64,000 nt of DNA, taken from positions 26,221 to 90,220 of the forward strand of contig JAUSIS010000006.1 in the NCBI GenBank assembly GCA_030647355.1. Direction: 5' to 3'. Positions 1,201 through 60,621 of the stretch are shown here, in pieces (position 1 is the first letter of the stretch; each line of letters opens with the position of its first letter). The translations under genes and the position numbers were made by a program. The stretch comes from a bacterium (GTDB lineage: Bacteria; Patescibacteriota; UBA1384; VFKW01). A model generated the notes under the pieces. That model saw only the letters and a list, made by a program, of their open reading frames with translations. It was not told the origin of the DNA and did not search any database.

Positions 1201-1231
1201 TAAAATGATGGGCAGTTGATTATAGGATAAA

Positions 1232-2305: not shown

Positions 2306-2313
2306 GGGTCTAG

Positions 2314-3360: not shown

Positions 3361-3432
3361 TCTCTAGTTAATTTTCTTGTTTGCGGTGGAATGGCCATCT
3401 GTTTTATGGTATTATGGAACGGAGGTAGAGAT

Positions 3433-5930: not shown

Positions 5931-5945
5931 ATAAACGGAGATCAT

Positions 5946-8490: not shown

Positions 8491-8502
8491 TTTGGAGAAA
8501 AT

Positions 8503-9489
8503 ATGGAAATAGCCAAGCAATTAAAGGAGCAACTGGGAGAAAAGCTTGAGGAACATCTAGGCCTTAGAGATTATACTACTATGAAAGTAGGAGGGGTGGC
8601 GGATTATGTTTTTAGTGCATCAACAGTGTCCGAGCTGGTTAATGCTGTGCAGGCGGCGGTTAATTTGGATATTCCTTATTTAGTCCTTGGGGGTGGCAGT
8701 AATGTGATTATTAGTGATTATGGCTTTCCTGGAATGGTGATTTTTAATCGCTCCTCAAATGTTGCTTTTCTGCAAGATAGATCACAAGTGATGTCTGATT
8801 CAGGAGTTTATTTATCGCATTTGATAACTTCGGCGGCAGCAAAAGAATATGGTGGACTTGAATTTTTAGTAGGGGTACCCGGTACTGTCGGAGGGGCTGC
8901 TTATAACAATGTATCGTGCTGGGGAGGAGAATTTAGCGACTATGTTCGTAGTCTTACAATTCTTTTGCCCGGGGAAGAAAAGGGTGAGAGGTGTCGGACA
9001 GTTAATATTGAGGCGCAAGATATGAAATTTGGTTATCATAGTTCCTGGCTCAAAGAAAATTCAGGAAAAAATGTAGGACGGAAACCAGTTATTTTATCAG
9101 TTAAACTTCAGTTAGCAAGTTTGCGCCGAGAGGAGATAATGAGACGAATCAAACAGTATCAACAAATGAGATTGTCTAAACAGCCACTTGGGGAGCATTC
9201 TGCTGGTAGTATTTTTAAGAATCCATCAGGATTTGAAGCGACTGCTAGCGAGGATAAAAATTATTCAGCTGGTTTCTTGATTGATAAATCAGGGGGAAAA
9301 CGGTTGAGGGTGGGTGGTGCTCAAGTATCTAAAAAACATGCGAATTTTATTGTAAATACAGGTAAAGCGACGGCTATGGATGTGAGACAGCTGATTGAAC
9401 AGATTCAAGAATTAGTGAGGGAGAAGAAGGGAATTACATTGGAAGAAGAGATAGAATTTATTGGGGAATGGTCAAAGGAGCAAGGATGA
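8503..9489 (+). CDS. murB: UDP-N-acetylenolpyruvoylglucosamine reductase MurB
   Basis: FAD-binding PCMH-type domain (TMKVGGVADY..LVLGGGSN) and MurB C-terminal domain. Confidence 0.85.
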   Translation: MEIAKQLKEQLGEKLEEHLGLRDYTTMKVGGVADYVFSASTVSELVNAVQAAVNLDIPYLVLGGGSNVIISDYGFPGMVIFNRSSNVAFLQDRSQVMSDSGVYLSHLITSAAAKEYGGLEFLVGVPGTVGGAAYNNVSCWGGEFSDYVRSLTILLPGEEKGERCRTVNIEAQDMKFGYHSSWLKENSGKNVGRKPVILSVKLQLASLRREEIMRRIKQYQQMRLSKQPLGEHSAGSIFKNPSGFEATASEDKNYSAGFLIDKSGGKRLRVGGAQVSKKHANFIVNTGKATAMDVRQLIEQIQELVREKKGITLEEEIEFIGEWSKEQG

Positions 9490-10427
9490 AAAAGAAGCTG
9501 CATGTTGCCTTGCTTGCGGGGGGGCTGTCCAGTGAGCGAGAGGTTTCGCTTCGTTCCGGGGAGAAGGTGGCTGAGGCGTTGAAATCTCTCGGTCATCAGG
9601 TAAGGATTTATGATCCGGCGACCGACCTAAGGAAAATTATTAATGAGCGAGATTGGGTAGATGTGGTTTTTCCAGCTTTACATGGAAAATACGGAGAGGA
9701 TGGCACTATTCAGGGTTTTTTAGAATTACTTGATTTACCATATGTGGGCAGTGGTGTGCTGGCGAGCGCGCTTGCGATTGACAAACTTAAGTCAGTCGAT
9801 GTATATAGGGCTGCAGGATTGCCGACTGCGAGGTCATTTTTGATTGCCGGTAGTAGTGTAGATTGCGATAGGGTAGAAACGGAGATTGGTTTTCCCTGTG
9901 TAATTAAGCCGGTTACTAATGGATCAAGTATTGGCGTTGAGATAGTTGATAAAAAAGAGCATCTTTCTGACGCATACCGTCGGGTTAGAAAACTAGAAGA
10001 TAGGGTGATGATTGAGGAATATATATCGGGCAGAGAGATTACGGTTGGAGTGATTGGAAATGAAGAGTCTAAAGCATTGCCAGTTTTAGAAATTAAGCCA
10101 AAAAGTAGATTTTTTGATTATGATGCAAAATATAATGGTGAGACAGAAGAAGTGGTGCCGGACGATATTGATACGTCCATACTTAAGAAAGCACAAGATT
10201 ATGCTGTTCTGGCGCATAAGATACTTGGTTGCAGAGGCTTGTCTAGAACAGACTTTATTGTCAGGGATAAGGAGGTAATTGTGCTCGAGACTAATACTAT
10301 GCCCGGGATGACGAGCGAGAGTTTACTACCTAAGGCGGACATGGCGGCGGGCGTTACGTTTCCAGAATTAATTGAGCAATTGTTGGAATTGTCTTTGGAG
10401 GGAAAAAATGGGTTGGCGCAGAAATAA
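9486..10427 (+). CDS. ddl: D-alanine--D-alanine ligase
   Basis: ATP-grasp fold (HGKYGEDGTIQGFLEL, C-terminal E..NTMPGMT). The ORF opens at 9468; the ATG at 9486 follows the RBS GGAGCAAGG. Confidence 0.85.
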   Translation: MKKKLHVALLAGGLSSEREVSLRSGEKVAEALKSLGHQVRIYDPATDLRKIINERDWVDVVFPALHGKYGEDGTIQGFLELLDLPYVGSGVLASALAIDKLKSVDVYRAAGLPTARSFLIAGSSVDCDRVETEIGFPCVIKPVTNGSSIGVEIVDKKEHLSDAYRRVRKLEDRVMIEEYISGREITVGVIGNEESKALPVLEIKPKSRFFDYDAKYNGETEEVVPDDIDTSILKKAQDYAVLAHKILGCRGLSRTDFIVRDKEVIVLETNTMPGMTSESLLPKADMAAGVTFPELIEQLLELSLEGKNGLAQK

Positions 10428-11202
10428 AGGAGCTGGGATCGGGCGCAATCCCATAATTATTAGTACTACTCCTAGGGAGCCGATGGCGTTGTATATTCCG
10501 AAATCTGTCGTGAATATTTTTTTGTTTTTATTAATAGTTACCGGTCTGTTTTACATCTTTTTTGTAAGTGATTATTTTAAGGTAAAGAGGGTAGTCTTTG
10601 AGGGTAGTATAACAAGTGAAGGGCGAGCGGCGGCTGAAAAATCGAGAGGTAAAAATATTTTTTATGTCAATAATTATAGATTGGCAGACGAGGTACGTAA
10701 GGTCTATCCGCAGGCATACTGGGTAAAAATCTATAGGGGATTGCCTGATGTTATCAAAGTCGTTACAGCTGAAAGAACGGTTTCGTTGATCTGGCAGTCT
10801 AACGATCAATATTACTTAGTGGACGATATGGGCATAGCGTTCAGAGCAATCGGAACTCTGGCTAGTAACGAGAAGTGGCAAGCTCTGCCTTTGGTTATTG
10901 ACATAGGCAATTTTAAAGTCGAACTAGGGAAAAGGTTGATTTCTTCACGTTTTATTGATTTTATTTCATATATACATGATAATTTTTCTGAAGTTGAGGG
11001 AAGTAAGCTTGTCAGGATCGAGGTAGCGGAGACGTCTTTCCACCCAGTATTAGTTACGGATTTGGGGTGGAAGGTATTACTCGATAGTAATAGTCCAGCG
11101 AAGGATCAGTTGGACGATTTGAAGCTAATTTTAAATAAGCATAAAGGTGATATTCATGAGTATGTTGATTTGCGAATCGAAGGATGGGGTTATTACAAAT
11201 AA
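10408..11202 (+). CDS. ftsQ: FtsQ/DivIB-like cell division protein (N-terminal TM anchor, POTRA-like domain)
   Basis: Single TM helix followed by a domain with the YQAYWVKIYRGLPDVIKVVTAER pattern. Terminal dcw position after ddl. Start chosen by the RBS GGAGGGAAAAA. Confidence 0.6.
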   Translation: MGWRRNKGAGIGRNPIIISTTPREPMALYIPKSVVNIFLFLLIVTGLFYIFFVSDYFKVKRVVFEGSITSEGRAAAEKSRGKNIFYVNNYRLADEVRKVYPQAYWVKIYRGLPDVIKVVTAERTVSLIWQSNDQYYLVDDMGIAFRAIGTLASNEKWQALPLVIDIGNFKVELGKRLISSRFIDFISYIHDNFSEVEGSKLVRIEVAETSFHPVLVTDLGWKVLLDSNSPAKDQLDDLKLILNKHKGDIHEYVDLRIEGWGYYK

Positions 11203-15152: not shown

Positions 15153-17954
15153 TTAGAAGCATTGTTGTGGGGATTTATTTTGATTTTGGTTATTGGAAGA
15201 ATCAACCCCTTGAACTGTAAAACATTTTTGTCCATTAGGAAGTCCTGCGAAAGCGCCTGGCATATAAGAACCAGGTGTAGCTGCATATTCGCCTTTGAGA
15301 GATCCTATATTTCCGTTTGAAGTTGAGAAGTATACCCGTACCTTAACCAGATCGGCATCCGATGGATTAGTCCAAAAAATGCTGGCAGAATTATTTGTCG
15401 TAGTACTATGGGTAACATCAATGATTGCATCTCCGGGAGGAGTGACATCGGCGCCGACTGTAATGGTAATAGAACTTTTTGCGCTGATTCCACTGGCATT
15501 GACTCGTGCCGAAAGTTCATGAGCTCCAGTGCTTAATTGATTAGCATTGTATGTTAGGACATAAGGACTTGTGTGGACGGTACCAATTGTATTTGTCCCA
15601 TCAATTATAAATTCAACATTATCTATGGTGCCAGCGTTATAGGAAGCGTCCGCTCTTATAGTGAAGAATCCCGAAACAGAAGCATTATCAGCTGGCTCGG
15701 TAATATTGATGATAGGTTTGACAACTTCTTCCAACTTACAGTATCTGGTGGGTGAGGGAATATACATGCCATTTGACTTGGCCCAGGCTTTAACAGGATT
15801 TTCCCAGCCGGGTTTATCAGGGAATTCTGAATGGATGTTGGAAAAGACTTTTTCTTCCACTTGACTTGCAGGCATATTTTTAGGTGCGAGAAGATTGTTG
15901 GACTTACAAACCCTTAATTTGACATTCACATCGTCTCTTTCGGTAGGAACTTGCCATTTAGCAAAGATGTCCGTAATGAATTCCTTGGAGAGTGAGCTGC
16001 GCAGTTTGTTAGAGTATTTTTCGACTGTCAGCTCTTGGATTTCTGCGGGTCTTGAGAATTTTTCGACTGGCTGACCTTTAAGGGTAGATTCCATAAATTG
16101 ATGCCAAATTGGTGCTGCTCCAATAGAACCGCCCGATGGTGACATCGGTTTACCGCTATTATTGCCTACCCATACTGCAGTGACGAGCTGGGGGGTGTAG
16201 CCCACGGTCCAGGCATCTTTATAATCATTTGAGGTACCAGTTTTAGCGGCAACCGGGCGGTCTTTCAAGCTTAGGTTATTCATAGTGAAACTGAAGACTG
16301 GTTTTTTAGCATTTAAATCCGATAGTACATCACTTATTTCGTAGGCAACTTGTGGGTCTAGCACTTTCCTGTCGTTTTCTTTTGGTTTCCACTCTTCAAG
16401 CACTCGGCCGTTGGCATCAGTTACCTTAAGTATTGGCGTTGTTTTGGCCAGGGTTCCACTATTAGCAAACACACCATAGGCGGTTGCCATATCAAGTGGG
16501 CGCACTTCCCCGGCGCCTAGAGCTAAAGACAGACCATAACGACTAGGGTCGGTTAATGTAGTAATACCCATATTGTCAGCGGTTTCCAGCATCTTATCAA
16601 TGCCAACCAATCCGAGGGCTTTGACGGCTGGAATATTTAGGGAGTTCCCAAGAGCATATCTTATAGTAACCGGGCCACGGAAACGTCCATCATAGTTTTT
16701 GGGAACATACTTACCAAAATCTGTTTGCAGGTCGAACAAGATTGAACCAGGATTATATTTACCTTGAAGGAGTGTGGCGTAGACAATTGGTTTAATAGAA
16801 GAACCTGGCTGGCGTTTGGCAGTAGTTACATTATAGTTGCCGTCGTTTTTGGTATCAAAATAGTCTAGAGAACCAACCATGGCGATAATCTGTCCGGTCT
16901 TAGGATCCAGGGCAACAAGACCCGTGTTGGATGCTCCATATTTTTTCAGATGAGCGGTAGAATCGCTGACGGCTTTCTCGGCTAGAGCTTGTTTGTCCAT
17001 ATCTAGTGTGGTAGTAACTTTCAATCCACCGCTTTCGACCATTTTCTCGCCGTATTTTTCGACGAGCACTTCTTTCACATACATAACAAAATGTGGTGCT
17101 TTAATATTTTCTCGACGAGGAATGAATTGTATAGGTAAGGCTTGAGTAGCGAGCTTTTGTTTTTTAGTGATGTAGCCTTGTTCCTGCATCTTTAATAAAG
17201 TTATATTTCGTCTATCTTTAAGGAGGTCTTGGTGATTGTAGAAGTAGGTTGGCATTTGGACAAGTGAAGCGAGAGTGGCAGCCTCGTCTAGAGTTAAATC
17301 TTGGGCATGTTTATTGTAATAGATACTGGCAGCTGCTTCGACGCCGTAGGCGTTTGAGCCATAAGGAATTTCGTTGAGGTACTTGGTAAGAATTTCCTCC
17401 TTACTGTACATGATTTCAATTTCTAGAGCTAAAATGAGTTCTTTTATTTTACGAGTCAGGCTTTTTTCATTGGTTAGGAGCGCATTTTTGACGAATTGTT
17501 GGGTGATAGTTGAGCCCCCATATCTTTTGTTGGCTAAATTACTGAAGACAGCGCGCGCTAAACCACGAAAGTCTACACCAATGTGGTGGTAGAAGTCTTT
17601 GTCTTCGAGGGCAACAGTTGCCTGTCGCATATAGAGCGGCATTTGTTCCTTAGTGATAACTGTGCGTTTAAATTCGCCGGATATTGAATATAATGGTGTC
17701 TTACTATCCCTGGCGTAGATCTGACTTGATTGAGACACATAACGATGTTTGATTTTGCCCGGAGTAGGCAGATCTTTAGAAAACCAGGCGAACAGGAGAG
17801 CTATGCCAAATAGGATAATTAGAAAAGAGTAGAGAGCAATATTGGCAATCGATCGGAGTGTAAAAATCTTTTTATGTTTAGATAGTGTTTTAGTAAGCTT
17901 TTGGAGATTTAGGGGGTTAGAAAAATTACTGCGAAATTTTTTTTGTTTTTTCAT
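15153..17954 (-). CDS. Class A penicillin-binding protein (PBP1A-type glycosyltransferase + transpeptidase) with a ~260-aa C-terminal Ig/FN3-like extension
   Basis: GT51 motifs EDKDFYHHIGVD and GGSTITQQ. Transpeptidase motifs SIKP, SLN, KTGTS. N-terminal TM anchor. C-terminal repeats look like beta-sandwich domains. Confidence 0.85.
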   Translation of the reverse strand: MKKQKKFRSNFSNPLNLQKLTKTLSKHKKIFTLRSIANIALYSFLIILFGIALLFAWFSKDLPTPGKIKHRYVSQSSQIYARDSKTPLYSISGEFKRTVITKEQMPLYMRQATVALEDKDFYHHIGVDFRGLARAVFSNLANKRYGGSTITQQFVKNALLTNEKSLTRKIKELILALEIEIMYSKEEILTKYLNEIPYGSNAYGVEAAASIYYNKHAQDLTLDEAATLASLVQMPTYFYNHQDLLKDRRNITLLKMQEQGYITKKQKLATQALPIQFIPRRENIKAPHFVMYVKEVLVEKYGEKMVESGGLKVTTTLDMDKQALAEKAVSDSTAHLKKYGASNTGLVALDPKTGQIIAMVGSLDYFDTKNDGNYNVTTAKRQPGSSIKPIVYATLLQGKYNPGSILFDLQTDFGKYVPKNYDGRFRGPVTIRYALGNSLNIPAVKALGLVGIDKMLETADNMGITTLTDPSRYGLSLALGAGEVRPLDMATAYGVFANSGTLAKTTPILKVTDANGRVLEEWKPKENDRKVLDPQVAYEISDVLSDLNAKKPVFSFTMNNLSLKDRPVAAKTGTSNDYKDAWTVGYTPQLVTAVWVGNNSGKPMSPSGGSIGAAPIWHQFMESTLKGQPVEKFSRPAEIQELTVEKYSNKLRSSLSKEFITDIFAKWQVPTERDDVNVKLRVCKSNNLLAPKNMPASQVEEKVFSNIHSEFPDKPGWENPVKAWAKSNGMYIPSPTRYCKLEEVVKPIINITEPADNASVSGFFTIRADASYNAGTIDNVEFIIDGTNTIGTVHTSPYVLTYNANQLSTGAHELSARVNASGISAKSSITITVGADVTPPGDAIIDVTHSTTTNNSASIFWTNPSDADLVKVRVYFSTSNGNIGSLKGEYAATPGSYMPGAFAGLPNGQKCFTVQGVDSSNNQNQNKSPQQCF

Positions 17955-19212: not shown

Positions 19213-21306
19213 TTAATAAGTAGTGCTAAATAAATAATTGTCAGTTGCGATCCATATTTTCCTCAAAATTGGCTGAACAAAAATATCTTTGATTTGTTTG
19301 GTATTTATTTTGATTTGTTTTATGTATTCGCCTTTTTTGTCGGTAACTATGATTTTATTTTGCTCAACTAAAAAGAAGAAGTCATTTTGCGGAGTCGTGT
19401 ATAGTATTGATGGATGTTGGGGGACTAAAGTTGGGGAAGGGAATTTACTATAAGTTAATTCGGTCAAGTTTGTTTTTTGGATTCTATAAATTTTACCTGA
19501 TTTCGACAGGGTATAAATAGAACTGTCAATAGTGATATCGGTCATTTCGGATAGAATACTTGTATCTTTACTGGTTAAATATGGGACTGCTGAATTGTAC
19601 CTACCTTCTTGGTTGGAAGGTGTATATTTCCATATTTGACTGTTTTTAGGGCTTAGAAGGTATAAATTGTTACTAAAAGTTGCTATTGCGGTTGCTGATT
19701 TCCAGATTTCATTGGAATTGATTGTGTTCACTTGCGCCTTATTCGGTAGAGATTCAAACATTTTTTGCTCGGCAGTTAGTATTATATATGACTGGTTACT
19801 AGTCGGGCCAGCAACTGCCACAATGTTTCCGGAGTTAGAGGGAAGTTTGGATGTTGATTTAAACCTTGATTCGTTAGAAGCTTTTTTGAATATTGATCCT
19901 ATCTGGGTGAAGGCATAGGTATTGTTACCGAGGATTGATACTTTGAGCGTTTTGGGAGGAAGTTGAATTTTATTAGCTGGGAGATCTATCTCTGTACTTT
20001 TTGTAAGTAATTGATATTTTGATTTGGAGTTATTTAGTAGTTCTTTTTCTTGGCTGGTTAATTTACGATCGGATAATTGACTAATAATTTCTTCCAACAT
20101 GGAAATTGCTTCTTTGTCTGAGGCACTTTTGGTGAGGTTATATTTTGTTTGGAGATTTGTTAGGGTAGTATTTTTGGTTGTATTGGGATTTACTTGTGGT
20201 TTGGCAGTATGTTTAATTTCAAGAATGATACTGGTAACCAGGATAATGATTAGGCAGCCAATAATAATGGGGTATATTGGTAGTTTGGACAGATTAATTT
20301 TTGGAAATCGGTTGTAGTGGTGAACTTTGACGGGATGTGGAGCGGTGTTGTTTTCGTCCTTGAGATTTGGGATTTTGTTTACTAAGGGTAGGTGCTTCAG
20401 TTTTTTTATTGCCAATTGAGATAGAGATAATATCGCAGGGGATTTTGCAGATATTTCTTTTTTACTCCAAGCGAAGAATGACCTAATCGTTTTGGTGGTA
20501 GCGGTTAGAATAATTAATGATGTCGGAATAACTTTTTTTTTCAATAGGTTGCCGGCTTTTCTCGGTAAAGACTGGTTTGTTTCGTCAAGGTATATTGTAT
20601 CCGGTACGTTTGACAAGGGTTCGTTGGCAATATCTTCTTTTGTAGTTGTTTCTATGAGGATGAGGTTAGTGTCAACCGGATTTGGTTGGGATAATATACG
20701 GGCTAGATTAATTGAAGCATCTTCAAGGGAATTTATTTCAAGTAGTTGTTTTAGTTCTTGTTTGGTGGTGTGGGAGAAGATTTTCTGGTTAGCCAAAGCT
20801 ATCAAATCGTTTTTTTCTAAGGCGCCGCTGGTAATATTTGAAAATGTACAGAGTGGATGAATACCTTCTTCGCCGTTGGCGGTATCGGGGGTGATATTCG
20901 AGGTTTTACCTTCGCGGATAAGGAGGCTGATAGTTTTCCCCACACTTGCTATATGCATTTCGTCTTTATAAATGAGAGCAATTACGCCATTAAGATTGCC
21001 TATCCAATCTGTCTGCCCGTCTTGGGTGTAGTTGGCGAGTACTTCGTTGGTTTTTCGGAGGGCTTGTTCAAAATTTGCCGAAGCATTATCATCAGTCAAG
21101 CGGAAATATTCGCGAGCGGTGGTATTAATGATACTCTGGCCAATTTGGGCATTAGAGTATTGGTCGCTAGATATTTCAATCAAGGAGAATAAGCAACCAG
21201 CGTATCCCTCTTTTTCTTCGGACGAGGGATGGATTTGGCAGGTGAGAAATTGATCTTTGGGTGGTTTTCTGGTTGTTAGTCTCTGGGTTTTCAGCGCATA
21301 GACCAT
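19213..21306 (-). CDS. Hypothetical bitopic membrane protein. Cytoplasmic N-terminal domain weakly PP2C/SpoIIE-like; large extracytoplasmic C-terminal domain.
   Basis: N-terminal ~200 aa resemble a degenerate PP2C fold (GNLNGVIALIYKDEMHIASVGKTISLLIREG) but lack a clear DGxGG metal motif. Single TM (IYPIIIGCLIIILVTSIILEI). ~330-aa Ser/Thr/Asn-rich C-terminal domain. Confidence 0.4.
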   Translation of the reverse strand: MVYALKTQRLTTRKPPKDQFLTCQIHPSSEEKEGYAGCLFSLIEISSDQYSNAQIGQSIINTTAREYFRLTDDNASANFEQALRKTNEVLANYTQDGQTDWIGNLNGVIALIYKDEMHIASVGKTISLLIREGKTSNITPDTANGEEGIHPLCTFSNITSGALEKNDLIALANQKIFSHTTKQELKQLLEINSLEDASINLARILSQPNPVDTNLILIETTTKEDIANEPLSNVPDTIYLDETNQSLPRKAGNLLKKKVIPTSLIILTATTKTIRSFFAWSKKEISAKSPAILSLSQLAIKKLKHLPLVNKIPNLKDENNTAPHPVKVHHYNRFPKINLSKLPIYPIIIGCLIIILVTSIILEIKHTAKPQVNPNTTKNTTLTNLQTKYNLTKSASDKEAISMLEEIISQLSDRKLTSQEKELLNNSKSKYQLLTKSTEIDLPANKIQLPPKTLKVSILGNNTYAFTQIGSIFKKASNESRFKSTSKLPSNSGNIVAVAGPTSNQSYIILTAEQKMFESLPNKAQVNTINSNEIWKSATAIATFSNNLYLLSPKNSQIWKYTPSNQEGRYNSAVPYLTSKDTSILSEMTDITIDSSIYTLSKSGKIYRIQKTNLTELTYSKFPSPTLVPQHPSILYTTPQNDFFFLVEQNKIIVTDKKGEYIKQIKINTKQIKDIFVQPILRKIWIATDNYLFSTTY

Positions 21307-32856: not shown

Positions 32857-33172
32857 GTGGCAAGAGATATAGGGCAAAGGCCTTGTTCTCTGGTTGCTTA
32901 AAACCCCTCACCCTTTAAGCAAAGGATGAGGGATAATAAGGAGGTTCCCAGCTCTTTCTGAGCTTGTCAATATCTGTGTGTTGTTGGGACATTATGGCGA
33001 TATTAGCAGATAAGGATGATGAGTTGAGAAAGGGCTGGGTAGGTCGGTAACCGACAACGGTATTTTCATTCGTTTATTTGCAGCCAGAAATGGGAAAATG
33101 TCAAATGACAAATTTCCAATGTCAAATAATTAACCCGCCGTCGCTGAAGCTATGGCGGGCGAAGGAGAAAAA

Positions 33173-33673
33173 ATGAGAAAAAAAGGTTTTACACTTATCG
33201 AACTTTTGGTGGTTATTGCCATCATTGGTATCTTAGCGGCAACAGTCTTGATCGGTATGCGATCGGCTCGTTCCAAAGCCAGAGATACGCAGAGGAAAAA
33301 CAATGTCAGATCGGTAATAAATATGCTAGAGTTGTATTATGATGACAATGTATCTGCGGGTTATCCAGCTACGACCTTAGCTGCCACTTGCTATAACGTG
33401 AATGGTTTGTCTGATGGTGATGCCAGCGGAGGCATTTCAGTCTTAGTGTCTGCGTTAAACGCTACAGCTGCATATGATATATCTGATATTACACAGAGCG
33501 ATGATCAGGCTGCAAGATATGGTTTTACTACCACTCTTACCGGTGCAACACCAGATCGCGTGAACAACGGTGCTTGTGCTGCAATGCTTCCAGCACAAGC
33601 ACAAGGGCCAGTCTATGTTGGTCAAAACATGGAGGCCCAGGGTAATGCATTTGAGGCACAGACGGCTCAATAG
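33173..33673 (+). CDS. pilA: Type IV major pilin (PilA-like) with class III signal peptide
   Basis: MRKKG|FTLIELLVVIAIIGILAA: prepilin peptidase cleavage motif with Glu+5. Cys pair near the C-terminus. Confidence 0.85.
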   Translation: MRKKGFTLIELLVVIAIIGILAATVLIGMRSARSKARDTQRKNNVRSVINMLELYYDDNVSAGYPATTLAATCYNVNGLSDGDASGGISVLVSALNATAAYDISDITQSDDQAARYGFTTTLTGATPDRVNNGACAAMLPAQAQGPVYVGQNMEAQGNAFEAQTAQ

Positions 33674-35590: not shown

Positions 35591-35643
35591 TATACAAGCT
35601 TTGGTGGGTTATGTTATGATAGAGAAAAGTGAGCGGAGGGGAA

Positions 35644-36204
35644 GTGAGAGCTCGAAAAAGTAAATTTGGTTTTACCTTGATTGAATTGATGATTACGATC
35701 TCGATTATGGGTATTTTGACAGTCGTGATGATTCCAGCGATTAGGAGTTTTGATAGGCGAAATAAGGTTACATCGGCGGCGGAGCAACTAAAGTCAGCGA
35801 TTCTGGAGGCGAGAAATTATTCAATGTCGCCAAGATTTAGCGATACAAATATTGACCGTTATAGTGTTATGATGGATTTGAGTCAAACTCCGGTTGAGTA
35901 TGAAGTCGGCTATTTTGAAAAGACGACTAATACTTGGCACAGTATTGCACCAAGAAAATTACCTAAAGGTGTTACTGTTGATCAGCGCTATCCTGACGAT
36001 GCTAATCCAAATGATATGGAGATTGGGTTTATGGTTCCTGCTGCTTCGGTCAAGTTTGAGAATTTATTTGATTACACGAACCAAACAACTTGGCCGGCGG
36101 CTAGTGGTATTGGTACGGTGAAGTTATGTGGCGAAAGTGCATCTTGCGGGGATAGTAAAACAGTTAAGATTAACAGTTATACTGGCTTAGTATTGATTGA
36201 ATGA
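35644..36204 (+). CDS. Type IV minor pilin / pseudopilin (FimT/GspH-like)
   Basis: Class III signal peptide VRARKSK|FGFTLIELMITISIMGIL. GTG start at 35644 behind the RBS GGAGGGG (the ORF opens at 35629). Confidence 0.75.
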   Translation: MRARKSKFGFTLIELMITISIMGILTVVMIPAIRSFDRRNKVTSAAEQLKSAILEARNYSMSPRFSDTNIDRYSVMMDLSQTPVEYEVGYFEKTTNTWHSIAPRKLPKGVTVDQRYPDDANPNDMEIGFMVPAASVKFENLFDYTNQTTWPAASGIGTVKLCGESASCGDSKTVKINSYTGLVLIE

Positions 36205-36224: not shown

Positions 36225-36755
36225 ATGTTAATTGCAAAACATAAGATAGGAAATCACAGAAAAGGGTTTGGCATATTAGAGGTAATGATTGCCAGTATGA
36301 TTTTAGTTACAGTAGTCGGAGCGGTGGTGGCGATGGGGAGTGCCAGTGTGAGGGGTGGGTTGACGGCTTCCGATAAGACAACTGCCTACAATTTGGCGCA
36401 AGAGTGTTTGGAGAAGGCGCGGTCCGTGAGAGATGGCAATTGGGTGGATCAGAACATCCCTACGGCTACAGAGTGGAATACCAATCTAACCACAGCAAAT
36501 TTATCAATGTTAAGCGAATGTAAAACTACCTCGGTGGGTACACCGCAAGTTGAGTATACGAGAGGGGTAGTCGTAACAAATGTGCCGTGGTTTGATCCCA
36601 CTTCGGGAGATCCGCCTCAATATGGTGTTCCACTTCAGGATATCCCCGAAGATATGGTACAACAAATTACTGTAACAGTGAGTTGGTTGGGTGAGAATAG
36701 CAATCAGAGTTTGACGGGCAGCACTTATTTAACCGACTGGAAGATGATCAATTAG
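36225..36755 (+). CDS. Type IV minor pilin PilV-like
   Basis: HRKG|FGILEVMIASMIL is the classical PilV-type N-terminus. ~150-aa globular C-terminal domain. Confidence 0.7.
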   Translation: MLIAKHKIGNHRKGFGILEVMIASMILVTVVGAVVAMGSASVRGGLTASDKTTAYNLAQECLEKARSVRDGNWVDQNIPTATEWNTNLTTANLSMLSECKTTSVGTPQVEYTRGVVVTNVPWFDPTSGDPPQYGVPLQDIPEDMVQQITVTVSWLGENSNQSLTGSTYLTDWKMIN

Positions 36756-39572: not shown

Positions 39573-40460
39573 ATGAATAAAGTGATTGTTAAAATAAGAG
39601 GGAGAAGCCTGTTTGCCGGTTTTACTTTGATTGAATTACTAGTGGTGATCTCAATAATAGGAATACTGGCATCTGTAGTGTTGGTGGGGCTTAGGAGCGC
39701 TCGAGGGAAAGCATTTGACGTGAGGAGGAAGGCAGGCGTGTTGAGTATTAGTAATGCAGTACAGGCATATTCGTTGGATAATAATGAAACCGTGCCGGCT
39801 TATTGTAATTGGACTAGTCTCAAATATTATGAATTAATGGGTTCAACGGGTCTTTTGTGCGCTAGTACAACCTTGATTAATGCCGGATATTTTACGGATG
39901 CTTCGGGTTCTTCACCTATTCCTAAAGATCCGGTGTTTACCGGAATTGCTAAACCTTATTGGTATGTCAGTGATCTGGAAAATTATCTTCTGAATGCTAA
40001 ATTATCTACAGGTAAGTATTTTAGTGTAAAGGATGGTTCTGCAACTACAGTGGTGGCTACTTCATCGATTGCGGGCGATACTTCACCACCGACGATTTCA
40101 TGTGGCGGTGGTGATTGTGTGCCTTATGTACAGTTTAGCGCAACACAGGTTGGATTCTTGCCGGGACCAGAAATTTGGCGGATTACCTTGAAGACGGCAG
40201 CAACTGACAATGTTTGGCTGGCTGGCCATAAATTAAAATTTTATGCGGAAATGCCTTCTTATATTGATAATACACCGTTGAATCCACCAGGAGTAAATGG
40301 TGTATTTACATCGGCAAATAGTTATGATTACACTATCCCGGCGCTTCCGGTCCGCCCTCAGAAGATTGATGTATTTATTTACCCAGTTGATGCTAACGGA
40401 AATGGTAATAGTGACTATAATGTGGGAGCGCAGTTTACAGTACCATCTCCTCGTCTATAA
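39573..40460 (+). CDS. Large type IV pilin paralogue 1 (~295 aa)
   Basis: Class III signal SLFAG|FTLIELLVVISIIGILASVVLVG. Variable Ser/Thr/Gly-rich body. C-terminal motif shared with paralogues (..GNGNSDYNVGAQFTVPSP). Confidence 0.8.
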   Translation: MNKVIVKIRGRSLFAGFTLIELLVVISIIGILASVVLVGLRSARGKAFDVRRKAGVLSISNAVQAYSLDNNETVPAYCNWTSLKYYELMGSTGLLCASTTLINAGYFTDASGSSPIPKDPVFTGIAKPYWYVSDLENYLLNAKLSTGKYFSVKDGSATTVVATSSIAGDTSPPTISCGGGDCVPYVQFSATQVGFLPGPEIWRITLKTAATDNVWLAGHKLKFYAEMPSYIDNTPLNPPGVNGVFTSANSYDYTIPALPVRPQKIDVFIYPVDANGNGNSDYNVGAQFTVPSPRL

Positions 40461-54298: not shown

Positions 54299-54508
54299 AT
54301 GAATGAGATTCCAGTATTTTATTGTCTAGAGTGTGGATATGTTGGAAATGCTCCGGGAATATGTCCTCAATGCAGTGCGACATTAGTAGCTGATGATATG
54401 AATTTGCCCAATGAAAAAGAAGAGGATGGCAAGTATGATGAGGCTGTATTAGAAGATGAGGAAGAGGATGATGAGTTGCCGGAAGATAAGTTTGAGGATG
54501 AAGAGTAG
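54299..54508 (+). CDS. Small zinc-ribbon protein with a poly-acidic C-terminal tail
   Basis: CLECGY..CPQC ribbon followed by EEDGKYDEAVLEDEEEDDELPEDKFEDEE. RBS GGAGGAGAATA. Confidence 0.5.
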   Translation: MNEIPVFYCLECGYVGNAPGICPQCSATLVADDMNLPNEKEEDGKYDEAVLEDEEEDDELPEDKFEDEE

Positions 54509-56094: not shown

Positions 56095-56123
56095 TTGACA
56101 TTTGGACAGTAGTGTGCTATACT
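56095..56123 (+). promoter_or_regulatory. Near-consensus sigma70-type promoter (TTGACA-17-TATACT)
   Basis: -35 TTGACA at 56095-56100, 17-nt spacer, -10 TATACT at 56118-56123. Directly downstream of the cysS stop. Confidence 0.6.
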
Positions 56124-56464
56124 AGCGCATAACAAAGGAAAAAAAGGAGGGCTCGTAAAGAGTCTTTCTTTGTTAGTACTTTGAGAAGGTTCAACTTAGA
56201 TGGAGTTTGTAAATACTAAGTTGGGATGTGTGTTAAAAATTTGGTGGTTGAAGTCTTGGCTGGGAATTGTGGGGCCTGATTCGTTAAATATTATGAATCA
56301 ATTTTACCTTCCTTTGCCTTTCGGGGTACTGCTCTGATGTAAATCGGGGTAGGTCCTGGTCAAGACCTTGCTCACCAAATAGTTATGTCCCGGTGGCAAG
56401 TTACATATGTATAATCACCGTAAGGTGTTTAGATATACGATCTTTGAGAAGAAAATAAAACAAC

Positions 56465-57595
56465 GTGGCCAGAGGTGGCCAAAGGAGGATGGAATCCATG
56501 AGAATGCTGAATGCTGTTTTGATTGTGCTGGTAGTGATGCCGATGCTGGCTAGTGTCAGTGTGGCACATACGACTTTGTTTCCACACACGCATAAGATCG
56601 CGGTGCTGGACGGTACGCTGGAGATTGGTATGTATCGCAACCGCGATACTGGCAATCCTAGGAACTTCATAGGCTATGTTCCGTTTGCAATAGTGAACGG
56701 ACAGCCTGTATCTGAAGGTGATGTGCCGGCCAAAGTCTGGCTTGAGATCACGTGGCGGGCATTGACCCCTCCTAGCAAGAAGGATTGCGATAAGGGGAGG
56801 AAGATGCAGATTCGCATTTCGAGTGATTCGGACTGCGATGAGCCTCGCCGACATGGACAGCCCGACGGAGTAGAGCTTTTCCGATCGTCGGATAACGCCC
56901 TGGAGCTCAGAGGCTTTCATTATATAGCAAAGTCTGAGTCTACGGGCGTGTGGTTCGACTTACTCGGAAAGAAAGACGAGATAGGCAATTCAAAGCTCGT
57001 CACTCTGAGAGTAACTCCTGTTTCCGTGAATGAGTGGATTGAAAACCCGGGTGGCGACTGCATGTCGCAGCTCGGCGGAACTCCACAAAGACAGGAATCT
57101 CAACCACAATCTGTCCCCGATTGGCGCGGTAAGACAGATCGTCAGCAGTATGACGATCGCGACTATGACAAGCGTAATGACAGTGACCAGGAAGATCGCG
57201 ATTGGGACACTCGACGAGATCAAGATCGGGATGATCGTGACTGGGACACTCGCGATAAGCGCGACCAGGATGATTATCGTGACAGTGAATCGCAAAACTG
57301 GAAGCCTCTCGAGGTTAACCATAAAGTCAAGGGTAAAGCCCTTGAAGTTAGGTTGGTTGACCGTAAGGGTGGAAAGTTCTGCGGTACCGGAACGATCATG
57401 ATTTCGGCCGGAGACGTTACGGTGGAGAGATCTGTCCGTGATGGGCGTTACCTGAGTGATGGTCGCTGGTGTGACTTTGATGGATCGTTTACGATCCCAA
57501 ATCGCACTGGGAGATACCGACAATTCAGAGTTGTAGCCGTTGGTTTCGAGAGATTCGAGATTGATGGCGACTGCGTGAAAGTCTGTGGAAAGTAG
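56465..57595 (+). CDS. Secreted hypothetical protein with an Asp/Arg-rich (DRDWDTR..) low-complexity segment; GC-rich
   Basis: Signal peptide MRMLNAVLIVLVVMPMLASVSVAHT. Central DRDYDKRNDSDQEDRDWDTRRDQDRDDRDWDTRDKRDQDDYRD. Local GC ~50% versus ~40% elsewhere. Confidence 0.5.
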   Translation: MARGGQRRMESMRMLNAVLIVLVVMPMLASVSVAHTTLFPHTHKIAVLDGTLEIGMYRNRDTGNPRNFIGYVPFAIVNGQPVSEGDVPAKVWLEITWRALTPPSKKDCDKGRKMQIRISSDSDCDEPRRHGQPDGVELFRSSDNALELRGFHYIAKSESTGVWFDLLGKKDEIGNSKLVTLRVTPVSVNEWIENPGGDCMSQLGGTPQRQESQPQSVPDWRGKTDRQQYDDRDYDKRNDSDQEDRDWDTRRDQDRDDRDWDTRDKRDQDDYRDSESQNWKPLEVNHKVKGKALEVRLVDRKGGKFCGTGTIMISAGDVTVERSVRDGRYLSDGRWCDFDGSFTIPNRTGRYRQFRVVAVGFERFEIDGDCVKVCGK

Positions 57596-57598
57596 GAG

Positions 57599-58513
57599 GT
57601 GTCCGAAATGAAGCAAGTAATGGTAGTAACACTGTTGGTACTTCTCGCCCTATCCGGGCTTGCCTGGGCAGGAGCGGAGATTGGCGATTTCGATACCGGA
57701 TCCTCTTACCAGGATAACGGGGATCGTGATCGTGATCGTAATGATGATAGCTACAAGCTGGAAGACCGGACGGACTCTGGCTCGAAAGAGACTGACCGTA
57801 AGACAGAGTTCCAGAGGTTCAACTTCAAGTCCGTCTATTACGTAGATCCTGCGGCAATCGTTGCTCAAGGCAAGCTTGAAGAGCTGCGAGGTAAGAATAT
57901 CATGTGTCTTTCTCTTCGAAGGAGTACGATGGCTGGTGGCCATGCGAATGACCTTCAGGTCGACTTCTTCTGGGGGGATTTCCCGGACAGGGTCTATGAG
58001 AAGAACGGCAGAATCTTCTACGACTGGTGCGACAACCAGTTGGTTGCAGTCGCATTGGAGCAGGACATAAATATATCGGTGAAGTCTGAATTCATCACTT
58101 ATGTCCAGAAGATATGCGAGAAGTACATTGAGAGTCGCGGTTACAGCTTGCCAAGCTATCCTAAGGAGGAATACGCTCTGAAAGTTAAGAAGCCGCATTA
58201 CTTCCGAAGGCCCGGCGGCGGACAACCGGCTAGCCTGGACTACTATGCTGAACGGCATCAAGGGATCGTGCAAATCCTTCTTGGCGCCGTCTGGAACATC
58301 GGCGGTGGGACGCGTATAAACAATGATGTGAAGGGCGGACAAGGCGGCCAAGGTGGCGAAGGCGGTGAAGGCGGGAATGGCTATGGGGCTGCAGCGGCAG
58401 CCGCCTCGTCATCTGCCGCTGTCGGAGGAGCTGCTGTGACGCCGACGAGTGCTACCAGTTTCCATGGGGAAACGTCGGGTGCCACAGGCTCGGCTGCCGA
58501 CGGCGGCCAATAA
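57599..58513 (+). CDS. Secreted hypothetical protein with DRDRDRND segment and Gly/Ala-rich C-terminus; GC-rich
   Basis: Signal peptide MKQVMVVTLLVLLALSGLAWAGAE. GDRDRDRNDD near the N-terminus. C-terminal GGQGGQGGEGGEGGNGYGAAAAAASSSAAVGGAAV. Confidence 0.5.
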   Translation: MSEMKQVMVVTLLVLLALSGLAWAGAEIGDFDTGSSYQDNGDRDRDRNDDSYKLEDRTDSGSKETDRKTEFQRFNFKSVYYVDPAAIVAQGKLEELRGKNIMCLSLRRSTMAGGHANDLQVDFFWGDFPDRVYEKNGRIFYDWCDNQLVAVALEQDINISVKSEFITYVQKICEKYIESRGYSLPSYPKEEYALKVKKPHYFRRPGGGQPASLDYYAERHQGIVQILLGAVWNIGGGTRINNDVKGGQGGQGGEGGEGGNGYGAAAAAASSSAAVGGAAVTPTSATSFHGETSGATGSAADGGQ

Positions 58514-58811
58514 CAACAACTAGCCCAGCTTCGGCTGAGGCGGTGAAGGGGAGGAGGTCTTAATTCCTCCCCTTCACACTGACTTTCTTGAAGATGAATT
58601 TGGTTAATTCTATATAGGATTAACGAAATGCATCTTTTAGAATCATCTAGGAGATGAGAGTGGGTCTATCGTCAAATACCATTTTGGCTGCAAATTGACA
58701 TTACGGTCTGCAAATTCACAAAAGCTCCTTAGCTTATCTACTATTGATAAACTTCGTCCCTTTTGCAAATTTTCGACTGCGTACTGAACAATTTTCGCTT
58801 CAAAAGCGTAT

Positions 58812-59483
58812 TTGACGATAGACCCAAGTAATATAACTGGAGGTTATATGACCAAACTACATTATGGGGGGATTGCCCTAGGTCTGGTGCTAGCTTTGTC
58901 CGTGGCAAACGTGGCATTAGCGAGCACGTCTTCGACCAGCTCTACTTCTGCATCAGGTGGGTCGAGCGCAGTAGTGGTCTCCGGCAATAGTGCCGGTGCG
59001 ACCTCGGAGCATAGTGAAACTTCTGGTACAAGCGGTACCAGCGGAAGCGGTACTTCAACTACCACTTCCAACACTCCTCCCAGCCAGCCTAGTTCGGGTG
59101 GAACAAGTTCAACTTCTTCTACCAGTGCATCTGGCGGATCGAGTGCTGCGGTAGTATCTGGTAATGGTGCTGCTGCTACGTCAGAACATTCCGAGACTTC
59201 TGGATCAAGCGGATCCAGTTCAGGTAGTTCTTCGAGTTCTACTCCTAGCTCTACCTCGAGTACTTCGTCTTCGGGTGGTTCTAGCGCAGCTGTCGCTACT
59301 TCTACTCCTAAAACTACGCCCACAAAAACCGTAGTTACAACTACCGAAACGGCTTCTGGAACATTGCCTCAAGCCGGTGCTTCAGTAGCATTCCCTGCAT
59401 TACTCGCTGTTCTAAGCGGTGCGGCAGGTATCTATTGGAAGCAAAAAGGAGCTGGTGGATTTATCCTAAATCCTAAGTTCTAA
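58812..59483 (+). CDS. Ser/Thr/Gly-rich cell-surface protein with a C-terminal sortase-type sorting signal (LPQAG + TM + KQKG)
   Basis: Signal peptide. Two internal ~55-aa repeats (SSTSSTSASGGSSA(V/A)VVSGN..ATSEHSETSG). C-terminus GTLPQAGASVAFPALLAVLSGAAGIYWKQKG. Confidence 0.55.
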   Translation: MTIDPSNITGGYMTKLHYGGIALGLVLALSVANVALASTSSTSSTSASGGSSAVVVSGNSAGATSEHSETSGTSGTSGSGTSTTTSNTPPSQPSSGGTSSTSSTSASGGSSAAVVSGNGAAATSEHSETSGSSGSSSGSSSSSTPSSTSSTSSSGGSSAAVATSTPKTTPTKTVVTTTETASGTLPQAGASVAFPALLAVLSGAAGIYWKQKGAGGFILNPKF

Positions 59484-59496
59484 GAGGAATAGTAAA

Positions 59497-59526
59497 GAAA
59501 AAACACCCAATTGGGTGTTTTTTCTT
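59497..59526 (+). terminator. Intrinsic terminator after the surface-protein gene
   Basis: AAAAAACACCCAATTGGGTGTTTTTTC. Confidence 0.75.
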
Positions 59527-59643: not shown

Positions 59644-60621
59644 GTGGATATACAAAAAAGGAAAGAAGATCTTAGAGAGCTTTTGAAGATTGGTCCAAAA
59701 GAAGCAAGAATTAATGAGATTCAGGAGAAAATGAGCGATCCTTCTTTTTGGTCTGATCGGGAAAAATCTCTGGTATTAACTCAAGAGCTGACGACTCTGC
59801 AGGGTATTATTAAAAAATTTGATGGTGCCAATGACGAGAAATCTATTGAGGGATTAGAAACACAAGCTTTACTTTCCGGAGAATATGATTTGAATAACGC
59901 GATTATTTCTTTAAGCGCAGGGGCGGGCGGGACAGAAGCGCAGGACTGGACTGAGATGCTATTTCGTATGTATGGCCGCTGGGCGGAAAGAAAAGAGTTT
60001 AAGTTTGAGGTACTTAGTATGTCAGAAGGCGAAGAAGCAGGATTGAAGAGCGCTACAGCAAGAGTAATGGGGCCATTTGCGTATGGTTATTTATCTTGTG
60101 AAGCAGGGGTTCATCGTCTTGTCCGGTTATCGCCGTTTGATGCCGATCATGCTCGGCATACTTCTTTTGCACTTTTGGAAGTGACTCCGGAAATTGATAA
60201 AGCAGAGGTAGAAATTGATCCAAAAGATTTAAAGATTGATGTATTTCGATCAGGTGGGCATGGCGGTCAAAGTGTTAACACAACTGATTCAGCGGTGCGA
60301 ATAACGCATTTGCCGACTGGTATTGTGGTTACTTGCCAGAATGAGCGCTCGCAATTGCAAAACAGAGAGATGGCGCTAAAGATATTAAAGTCTCGGCTTA
60401 TGATTAAGGAAAAGGCGCAAAAGAAGGCGCAGGAAAGGAAGATTAAGGGGGAGCTGGAATCGGCCGAGTGGGGGAGTCAGATAAGATCGTATGTTTTGCA
60501 CCCTTATCAAATGGTTAAAGATCACCGCACAGAATATGAAACAGCTAATACGCAGGCAGTTCTTGGTGGAGATATTGATGGGTTTATTGAAGCATGTTTA
60601 AAGAAGAGAGCTCTAGAGTAA
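59644..60621 (+). CDS. prfB: Peptide chain release factor 2 (short N-terminus, GTG start, no +1 frameshift found)
   Basis: SPF motif (LVRLSPFDA), GGQ motif (SGGHGGQSVN). Alignment to E. coli RF2 begins after the position of its frameshift site. RBS TAGGAG 6 nt before the GTG. Confidence 0.8.
   Translation: MDIQKRKEDLRELLKIGPKEARINEIQEKMSDPSFWSDREKSLVLTQELTTLQGIIKKFDGANDEKSIEGLETQALLSGEYDLNNAIISLSAGAGGTEAQDWTEMLFRMYGRWAERKEFKFEVLSMSEGEEAGLKSATARVMGPFAYGYLSCEAGVHRLVRLSPFDADHARHTSFALLEVTPEIDKAEVEIDPKDLKIDVFRSGGHGGQSVNTTDSAVRITHLPTGIVVTCQNERSQLQNREMALKILKSRLMIKEKAQKKAQERKIKGELESAEWGSQIRSYVLHPYQMVKDHRTEYETANTQAVLGGDIDGFIEACLKKRALE

Follow-up and report, generated by a model that had tools for sequence, protein, structure and literature searches.

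Between cysS and prfB, the 64,000-nucleotide stretch of contig JAUSIS010000006.1 (assembly GCA_030647355.1) analysed here, referred to below as the window, carries three consecutive open reading frames, ORF1, ORF2 and ORF3, preceded by a promoter and a long leader (positions 56095-59526). An initial annotation, made from the sequence alone, had described this region as a compositionally distinct island, possibly acquired horizontally. On balance, we lean towards a different reading, namely that of a surface-protein cassette inherited vertically and headed by a structured RNA leader, so far seen only in three Berkelbacteria-like genomes of the Patescibacteria (Candidate Phyla Radiation, CPR). 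The comparisons of the cassette rest on three loci, the window and two relatives designated L002 and L003. The elements at the centre of the analysis are the following, percentages being the identities of the orthologues.

56095..56123, + strand: sigma-70-type promoter, TTGACA-17-TATACT with a TG extension, matching 11 of 12 consensus positions
56124..56497, + strand: 5' leader of the ORF1-ORF2 operon, ~370 nucleotides (nt), guanine-plus-cytosine (GC) content 0.41
56498..57595, + strand: ORF1, a predicted secreted protein of 365 amino acids (aa); 53% (L002), ~30-31% (L003)
57608..58513, + strand: ORF2, a predicted secreted protein of 301 aa; 46% (L002), ~34-35% (L003)
58848..59483, + strand: ORF3, a Ser/Thr/Gly/Ala-rich protein of 211 aa; 72% (L002), ~52-55% (L003)

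As read from the sequence, all three ORFs begin with a signal peptide of the AxA type, basic and hydrophobic, in agreement with the earlier description of three secreted or surface proteins. The promoter and the flanking genes proposed at that stage hold as well: the -35 hexamer TTGACA is invariant and the extended -10 element is conserved in L002 and L003, and in the window cysS lies upstream and prfB downstream of the cassette.

The relatives were reached by two routes. ORF1 and ORF2 are identical to the hypothetical proteins Q7S37_01655 and Q7S37_01660, respectively, of an NCBI metagenome-assembled genome (MAG), and a Logan assembly, L001, has DNA identical to the window locus. A BLASTP search of 5.8 billion proteins returned one extra homologue each for ORF1 (47%) and ORF2 (45%), both of which sit on a single 5-kb Logan contig, L002. 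L003, a Candidatus Berkelbacteria MAG, was picked up by a genome scan based on CysS. At all three loci the order is the same: a zinc-ribbon gene, cysS, promoter, leader, ORF1, ORF2, a hairpin, ORF3 and a terminator. In L002 and L003 the leader is ~400 nt long, and the ORF2 homologue begins 2-13 nt past the ORF1 homologue. The genomes themselves are well diverged, CysS of the window being ~70% identical to that of either relative (70/71/66% for the three pairs). The whole cassette thus lies directly after cysS in diverged relatives, a shared context which the initial annotation had itself named as an argument for vertical inheritance, and recent horizontal import is unsupported. In a more distant member of the Patescibacteria (L004, CysS 52% identical), recR-cysS is kept, the downstream genes are unrelated and the cassette is absent; the earlier suggestion of a lineage-specific module is borne out to this extent. 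No further relatives of the cassette were found in metagenome or viral scans, and a concatenated ORF1-ORF2-ORF3 profile searched against 5.8 billion proteins gave, among the matches listed, only the proteins named above. Paralogues of ORF1 to ORF3 were found neither elsewhere in the window nor near cysS in 11 other loci. The zinc-ribbon gene just upstream of cysS (54299-54508) encodes a 69-aa CxxC…CxxC protein with a very acidic tail, kept in L002 and L003 at 74-77% identity.

ORF1 and ORF2 divide into conserved domains and variable linkers as follows.

Within 56498..57595, + strand: ORF1 signal peptide, aa 1-23
56567-57079, + strand: ORF1 conserved beta-rich N-domain, aa 24-194
57080-57301, + strand: ORF1 variable Asp/Arg linker, aa 195-268
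57302-57592, + strand: ORF1 C-terminal beta-sandwich, aa 269-365, predicted from an AlphaFold2 (AF2) model
Within ORF2: signal peptide, aa 1-21; variable acidic linker; conserved domain, ~aa 71-239; Gly-rich linker and Ala/Ser tail, aa 240-301

The Asp/Arg runs and the Gly/Ala tail for which these proteins had been called low-complexity are present, but ORF1 and ORF2 consist mostly of conserved, non-repetitive domains. The Asp/Arg linker of ORF1 has no counterpart in L002 or L003, the linker being fully different between the lineages, and it coincides in the window with a 39-nt tandem repeat (2.3 copies). Similarly, the DRDRDR run of ORF2 (GDRDRDR) is not conserved and coincides with a 6-nt tandem repeat (3 copies). 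The conserved domain of ORF2 (~170 residues), by contrast, has invariant Cys, His, Asp and Trp positions, and its tail terminates in FHGETSG in the window and in (F/S)HGETSG across the orthologues. Because the Shine-Dalgarno (SD) sequence of ORF2, AGGAGGTG, overlaps the stop codon of ORF1, ORF2 is predicted to be translationally coupled to ORF1.

None of the nine proteins (ORF1-ORF3 at three loci) gave a significant match to a Pfam, NCBIfam or PHROGs family, chaplin (PF03777) and S-layer homology (SLH) included; in Pfam there was no match at E<=1 for the window proteins or at E<=10 for their orthologues. PADLOC gave no match for the three window proteins, PDB profile searches were negative for ORF1 and ORF2, and there was no PDB sequence match. 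Judged by these searches, ORF1 to ORF3 are orphan protein families. In the AF2 model of ORF1, the beta-sandwich (aa ~269-365) has a predicted local distance difference test (pLDDT) score of 65-88 and the remainder is unreliable (mean of the model 48); that of ORF2 (mean pLDDT 36) is unusable. Foldseek comparison of the models with PDB and BFVD returned nothing meaningful (template-modelling score, TM, <0.25). A histidine-brace copper site was considered for ORF1 and rejected: the mature N-terminus reads HTTLFPHTH in the window and in L002 but FSLFSDTKE in L003.

ORF3 is the best conserved of the three proteins, with a ratio of non-synonymous to synonymous substitution rates (dN/dS) of 0.145 against L002. 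Its parts are listed here.

Within 58848..59483, + strand: ORF3 signal peptide, aa 1-25, with predicted cleavage at MTKLHYGGIALGLVLALSVANVALA|STS as read by inspection, with equivalents in L002 and L003
58923-59051 and 59100-59228, + strand: two ORF3 repeat units, aa 26-68 and aa 85-127, each containing …SGGSSAVVVSGN..ATSEHSETSG…
59364-59378, + strand: LPQAG, invariant in the three orthologues, 34 residues from the C-terminus
59379-59438, + strand: hydrophobic segment of 20 residues, its position invariant in the three lineages
59439-59480, + strand: C-terminal tail, KQKGAGGFILNPKF

The two 43-residue units share 34 of 43 residues, of which 8 of 34 are encoded by identical codons, and 4 of the 14 Ser pairs between the units swap TCN for AGY or the reverse. 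Since the protein sequence is kept while the codons have diverged, the repeats are old and held by selection on the protein, and are not products of slippage. The tail of ORF2 resembles these units: its alignment to an ORF3 unit scores 69, whereas shuffled tails score 43±6 and only 2 of 2000 reach 69. The motif H-x-E-[ST] is also found in the L003 proteins. ORF2 thus appears to carry one unit of the ORF3 type at its end and may, through it, dock on ORF3 with ORF1 in tow.

How ORF3 would be held at the envelope depends on how its C-terminus is read. LPQAG, the 20 hydrophobic residues and KQKG are all present, as recognised in the initial annotation, which had taken them for a variant of a sortase-type sorting signal; natural departures from LPXTG of the form LPX(A/S)G, LPXAG among them, have been documented (PMC2657157, PMC3436756). 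The basic run after the membrane segment (KQK/RQKK/KQRK, 2-3 basic residues) is invariant in position in the three lineages and is followed by a stretch, (G/A/N)(G/A)GFILNPxF, that is invariant across them. At positions 1-10430 the window encodes a penicillin-binding protein (PBP) transpeptidase, two Mur ligases, MraY, a MurD-like protein, FtsW, MurG, MurC, MurB and Ddl. With such a complete mur/dcw cluster the genome encodes peptidoglycan synthesis, so that an acceptor would be present, and over half of CPR genomes encode sortases, if patchily outside Microgenomates (PMC6744442). Transfer to peptidoglycan by a sortase is, from the arrangement of these motifs, the most likely mode of attachment.

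It is also possible, but in our view rather unlikely, that ORF3 is a type I membrane protein, anchored permanently by its hydrophobic segment, with LPQAG as a conserved motif beside the membrane and KQK…GFILNPxF as a short cytoplasmic tail that binds a partner or another sorting enzyme. The eight residues GFILNPxF, invariant in three lineages, are foreign to classical LPXTG signals and would also suit a type I membrane protein whose cytoplasmic tail is short. The LPXTG_anchor model TIGR01167 scores below its cut-off in L003 (14.0 bits, E 0.064; cut-off 15.9) and does not hit the ORF3 of the window or of L002, nor does Pfam. No sortase was found in the window, the sortase motif TLxTC being absent from the plausible ORFs of its 64 kb, and the ORF3 tail was found in no other protein of the window or of the fetched loci. 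A phmmer search with the tail against 1.84 billion representative sequences returned two spurious repeat proteins; this last is a weak point, for the collection lacks ORF3 and its orthologues. Set against a type I membrane protein are the signal peptide, the LPX(A)G motif, the ~20 hydrophobic residues and the basic residues within 34 of the end, which together make up the sortase layout, as well as the existence of LPXAG substrates and the presence of peptidoglycan synthesis genes. We therefore keep to sortase anchoring as the preferred reading of ORF3.

The composition of the region, from which the idea of an island had come, was then broken down by gene and codon position. The rise in GC content is real: it is 0.50-0.56 between ~56500 and 59500 against ~0.41 around, and the maximum over 2 kb is 0.524 inside, whereas elsewhere in the window 2-kb values are 0.415±0.018 (maximum 0.453). 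It is however not a property of the ~3.4 kb as a block, only the third codon positions of ORF1 and ORF2 being shifted. GC content is ordinary in the leader (0.409) and in the ORF2-ORF3 spacer (0.398). The 44 background genes on the + strand have a GC content at third positions (GC3) of 0.388±0.037, with very low C (C3, 0.10) on a strongly G-skewed strand. GC3 is 0.529 in ORF1 (z = +3.8) and 0.581 in ORF2 (z = +5.2), a shift made up of raised C3 (0.24-0.31) and lowered A at third positions (A3), G (G3) being unchanged. In these two genes Phe is encoded by TTC in 78% of cases (background 14%) and Lys by AAG in 81% (background 44%), and base use at four-fold sites is near-uniform. Codon choice contributes +0.061 and amino-acid composition +0.034 to the GC excess of ORF1; the corresponding values are +0.079 and +0.045 for ORF2. 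For ORF3 they are -0.011 and +0.110 (GC at second positions, GC2, 0.74; GC3 0.355). ORF3 is thus GC-rich because of its Ser, Thr, Ala and Gly codons, and its third positions are host-like.

L002 has the same shift, with GC3 of 0.60 and 0.61 in ORF1 and ORF2 against 0.40 in cysS. The raised GC3 of ORF1 and ORF2 is therefore a gene-specific codon choice shared with L002. It also accounts for the long antisense ORFs of the region, which the initial annotation had judged a side-effect: antisense stops in codon alignment correspond to sense TTA, CTA and TCA, and these are scarce in ORF1 and ORF2, with 2 in each gene where background codon choice would give 10.9 and 10.0, respectively. The extents of the antisense ORFs differ in L002. 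Two simple causes of the shift were rejected. The usual codon bias of highly expressed genes does not explain it, the ribosomal-protein genes for L21, L11 and L1 having C3 of 0.06-0.10. Neither does a simple strand inversion: minus-strand genes do share the high C3, but ORF1 and ORF2 hold the G3 level of the + strand (0.28), so that their total GC3 is raised. Throughout the window the + strand has a GC skew of +0.1 to +0.4 in 2-kb windows and carries nearly all genes; the two large minus-strand genes (15153-17954 and 19213-21306) have C3 of 0.26-0.27 against 0.10 in + strand genes.

The GC3 shift could come from selection specific to these mRNAs, or from repeated replacement of alleles from GC-richer relatives. 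An ancestral cassette in which the ORF1-ORF2 block was swapped once or repeatedly, by homologous recombination, for alleles of GC-richer relatives would resemble antigen-cassette switching, and several observations are in line with it. The shift is limited to ORF1 and ORF2 and is found in the window and in L002 but not in L003. In their housekeeping genes the three genomes are equally far from one another (CysS 70/71/66%, zinc ribbon 74/77%), while the identities of ORF1, ORF2 and ORF3 are 53/46/72% between the window and L002 and ~30/35/55% to L003. The conserved flanks (leader core and hairpin) could moreover act as recombination arms. However, ORF3, with its host-like GC3, shows the same closeness between the window and L002, and a faster evolution of L003 explains the pattern equally well. 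Synonymous sites are saturated between the window and L002 (proportion of synonymous differences, pS, ~0.75) and identity at four-fold sites is random (0.27-0.29). A single old transfer should by now have lost its GC3 excess of +0.15-0.2 if composition relaxes towards that of the host, and separate recent transfers would have to be assumed. A GC-rich donor homologue was not found in the protein, metagenome and viral searches. Allele replacement is on this evidence an unlikely but not negligible account, and we retain vertical inheritance of the cassette with a gene-specific codon choice.

The leader, which had been overlooked, is the best-conserved DNA at the locus, above any neighbouring gene. 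Three structured parts were recognised in it.

56143-56171, + strand: 5'-proximal hairpin with an SD-like GGAGGG, its pairing kept through changes in L002
56236..56383, + strand: four-helix core, ~148 nt, comprising in the RNAalifold model a 25-pair closing helix, two hairpins and a hairpin of variable length
56466-56481, + strand: small hairpin beside the real SD sequence of ORF1 (AAGGAGGA)

The core, in which a stretch UUUUCCUUCCUUUG is conserved, has an identity of 75-85% whichever two of the three loci are compared; the values are 69% for cysS DNA and 27-42% for four-fold sites. The minimum free energy (MFE) of the whole leader lies well below that of shuffled sequences (z = -3.9 in the window, -4.5 in L003). 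In the core, 96% of pair cells are paired against 40-56% with slid partners, and there are 10 compensatory pairs against 0-1 when slid; none of 500 shuffles reached the observed values, which were scored on the same three sequences from which the structure was derived. Small ORFs in the leader were rejected as coding, since they are unconserved and the conserved block contains 1-nt indels. In Rfam 15 no leader had a hit at the gathering threshold: at E<=10 the window leader gave only SAM-V, with 26.7 bits over the promoter (gathering score 41), and one hit of E=6, and the leaders of L002 and L003 gave no matches. Neither the window nor 13 other loci yielded a second copy in a search with a covariance model of the core. 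The core is therefore a candidate new RNA motif, belonging to no described family. No ligand, terminator/anti-terminator or SD-sequestering switch conserved in all three loci was obvious. Most likely the leader acts in cis on the stability or the translation of the ORF1-ORF2 mRNA.

The same conservation might be expected if the element were an independent small RNA gene that has a promoter to itself and happens to stand in front of ORF1. In favour of this are the strong, conserved promoter, the small size of the core (148 nt) and its conservation above the level of any neighbouring gene; identity of the core is also equal in the three pairs, unlike that of the proteins. Yet the window shows neither a terminator-like hairpin and T-run from the core to ORF1 nor a second good promoter ahead of ORF1, and the RNA adjoins ORF1 at all three loci. 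We consider a separate small RNA gene improbable and treat the element below as a leader.

A number of points weigh against the reading of the locus as a vertically inherited surface-protein cassette under a structured leader, in addition to the atypical terminus of ORF3 described above. Firstly, the codon shift is left unexplained by it: L003 does not show the shift (GC3 of 0.39 and 0.415 in ORF1 and ORF2 against 0.37 in cysS), and high expression fails as a cause, as the ribosomal-protein genes indicate. Secondly, the functions proposed for ORF1 and ORF2 are drawn from context, given the low mean pLDDT of their models (48 and 36) and fold searches that returned no significant match. Thirdly, the docking of ORF2 on ORF3 would follow from one sequence likeness in compositionally biased segments. 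Lastly, the structure of the leader core was proposed and scored on the same three sequences, as noted. The anatomy of the locus, its synteny and conservation, the distribution of the composition between genes and the pairing pattern of the RNA are shown directly by the sequences, while secretion, sortase anchoring, the docking of ORF2 on ORF3, the action of the leader in cis and a role in adhesion are inferred.

The data do not fit a recently acquired island, that is, a GC-richer foreign block put between cysS and prfB, which we regard as very improbable. Such an island would give a GC content of 0.50-0.56 against 0.41, GC3 values as deviant as those of ORF1 and ORF2 with near-uniform base use at four-fold sites, the fall in GC skew seen inside the region, and proteins that are near-orphans. 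But this cassette is found in the same place in two genomes with a CysS only ~70% identical, a value that also excludes L002 and L003 being assemblies of one population; the leader, the spacer and the third positions of ORF3 have host composition; and the promoter and leader are the best-conserved DNA of the locus. No signature of mobility was found: integrase or transposase ORFs are absent, there is no tRNA within 30 kb and the region is not flanked by direct repeats, and the sole inverted-repeat element is an insert of 166 nt within the cassette. Because the departure from host composition is not block-wide, the region does not qualify as a genomic island on composition either. Finally, that the ORFs are chance sense frames, or that the antisense ORFs are the true genes, is scarcely credible: the long antisense ORFs span much of the region and no protein has a known family, but signal peptides, invariant W/G/P/C/D blocks and the positions of starts and SD sequences are kept in three lineages despite saturated synonymous sites, and the antisense ORFs differ in extent in L002 and are explained by the missing TTA, CTA and TCA codons.

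The nearest known kind of system is the sortase-anchored surface-protein locus. ORF3 resembles LPXTG/LPXAG proteins (TIGR01167/PF00746) in its signal peptide, its Ser/Thr-rich low-complexity stalk, its LPX(A)G motif and its hydrophobic and basic end, and the host likewise makes peptidoglycan. It differs in its sub-cut-off profile score, in the GFILNPxF extension and in that no sortase lies within 64 kb; the host, too, is a member of the CPR and not a Firmicute or an Actinobacterium. LPXAG proteins are on record in Staphylococcus aureus and Streptococcus uberis (PMC3436756, PMC2657157). The arrangement of units in the anchored ORF3 and the secreted ORF2 also has a parallel in the chaplins. The long chaplins of Streptomyces have two chaplin domains and a sortase signal, and the short, secreted ones have one and co-assemble on the surface; by the same logic, the anchored ORF3 has two ~40-residue units and the secreted ORF2 would have one and might co-assemble with it. 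There is no sequence relationship, however, the ORF3 unit being polar (S/T/G/A, H-x-E) and not hydrophobic, and ORF2 having a large globular domain. Serine-rich repeat or mucin-like wall-anchored adhesins of Gram-positive bacteria combine a Ser/Thr-rich stalk with a C-terminal wall anchor. The stalk of ORF3 is alike and its O-glycosylation is plausible, but the protein is tiny (211 aa), has two old and precise units in place of long, fast-changing arrays, and has no accessory Sec or glycosyltransferase gene beside it.

As to the leader, known structured 5' regions include stem-loops, the SD-like 'STAB-SD' stabilisers, the leaders of S-layer genes and riboswitches. With stabilising leaders the one described here shares a strong promoter, an SD-like GGAGGG carried by a 5' hairpin and, before genes for predicted secreted proteins, a long and folded untranslated region (UTR); with riboswitch aptamers it shares a multi-helix core conserved above the level of coding sequences, and it differs from them in having no Rfam family. 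Likewise, the region resembles genomic islands in its raised GC content, in the atypical codon use of ORF1 and ORF2 and in its reduced GC skew, and departs from them in occurring in the same context in diverged relatives and in having no mobility genes, tRNA or direct repeats. A local shift in GC content and codon use is thus not evidence of recent gene transfer here, which matters for island screens based on composition.

Taken together, these observations suggest how the cassette might work. The strong sigma-70 promoter would drive transcription of the ~370-nt folded leader RNA, which would govern, in cis, how stable the ORF1-ORF2 mRNA is or how well it is translated. Translation of ORF1 and ORF2 would be coupled, and both proteins would be secreted by the Sec pathway, presenting novel globular domains on fast-changing linkers. 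ORF3 would be expressed from its own ribosome-binding site after the conserved hairpin, exported, and held at the envelope through its C-terminal LPQAG, hydrophobic and basic signal, the likeliest course being transfer by a sortase to peptidoglycan. Once anchored, it would display a Ser/Thr-rich stalk with two conserved ~43-residue units, on which ORF2 (with its one unit), and with ORF2 also ORF1, would dock or co-assemble. Together they would form a complex at the surface of a probably episymbiotic CPR cell, serving attachment or envelope structure. CPR bacteria are thought to live attached to other cells, and to our knowledge almost nothing is known of the surface molecules involved beyond type IV pili. 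What the cassette offers, in a Berkelbacteria-like lineage, is a conserved group of orphan proteins, predicted to be secreted or anchored and probably expressed at a high level, together with a candidate new structured RNA. More speculatively, and with little confidence on our part, the locus could represent an undescribed CPR surface-assembly system, in which a stalk anchored to the wall or the membrane, with the conserved ~43-residue H-x-E unit and a new sorting tail (LPQAG, membrane segment, GFILNPxF), recruits a secreted ORF1-ORF2 complex by way of the matching unit on ORF2, under a new class of leader RNA that senses a ligand or a protein. In such a system the maintained recoding of ORF1 and ORF2 towards high GC3 would contribute to this control, via mRNA stability or translation.

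Four further non-coding elements lie between ORF2 and the end of the cassette.

58543..58577, + strand: perfect GC-rich hairpin of 13 bp downstream of ORF2, lacking a proper U-tract; L002 and L003 have it in the same place, with co-changes in its two arms
58585..58642, + strand: imperfect palindrome upstream of ORF3, 32-nt arms 84% complementary, its sequence conserved in the three loci
58661..58826, + strand: 166-nt insertion with 26-nt inverted repeats, arms 92% complementary with perfect 18-mers
59503..59525, + strand: intrinsic terminator, ACACCC-AATT-GGGTGT then TTTTTTC, as read from the sequence

The hairpin after ORF2 may be the 3' end of the operon, an attenuator or a stability element, and the palindrome may be a promoter/operator of ORF3, a part of its 5'UTR or an RNA hairpin. 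The 166-nt insertion, of which the window has a single copy and L002 and L003 none, contains CTGCAAATTSACA twice; it would be either an element like a miniature inverted-repeat transposable element (MITE) or an added hairpin in the 5'UTR of ORF3. At the position of the terminator, L002 and L003 have a hairpin and a T-run with a different stem sequence. Past it, GC-rich hairpin-like motifs such as GGATGAGGGGG are common to L002 (4900-5013) and L003 (12180-12330), and the motif CCCTTTCAGGG of this downstream region is also present in the window at ~59565. These shared motifs may be a further small conserved element before prfB.

Two observations concern other genes of the window. The product of prfB (59644-60621) is 325 aa long, from a GTG start behind an AGGAG SD sequence. 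By eye, against the release factor 2 (RF2) of E. coli, this start corresponds to the position immediately past the usual frameshift site; neither an in-frame TGA slip site nor an upstream ORF for the N-terminus was evident in the window, and this prfB may have a short N-terminus and no programmed +1 frameshift. Prepilin-type N-termini (…GFTLIELLVV…) were found in the ORFs at 33152-33673, 35629-36204, 36225-36755 and 39573-40460, which suggests a gene cluster for a type IV pilus or for pseudopilins.

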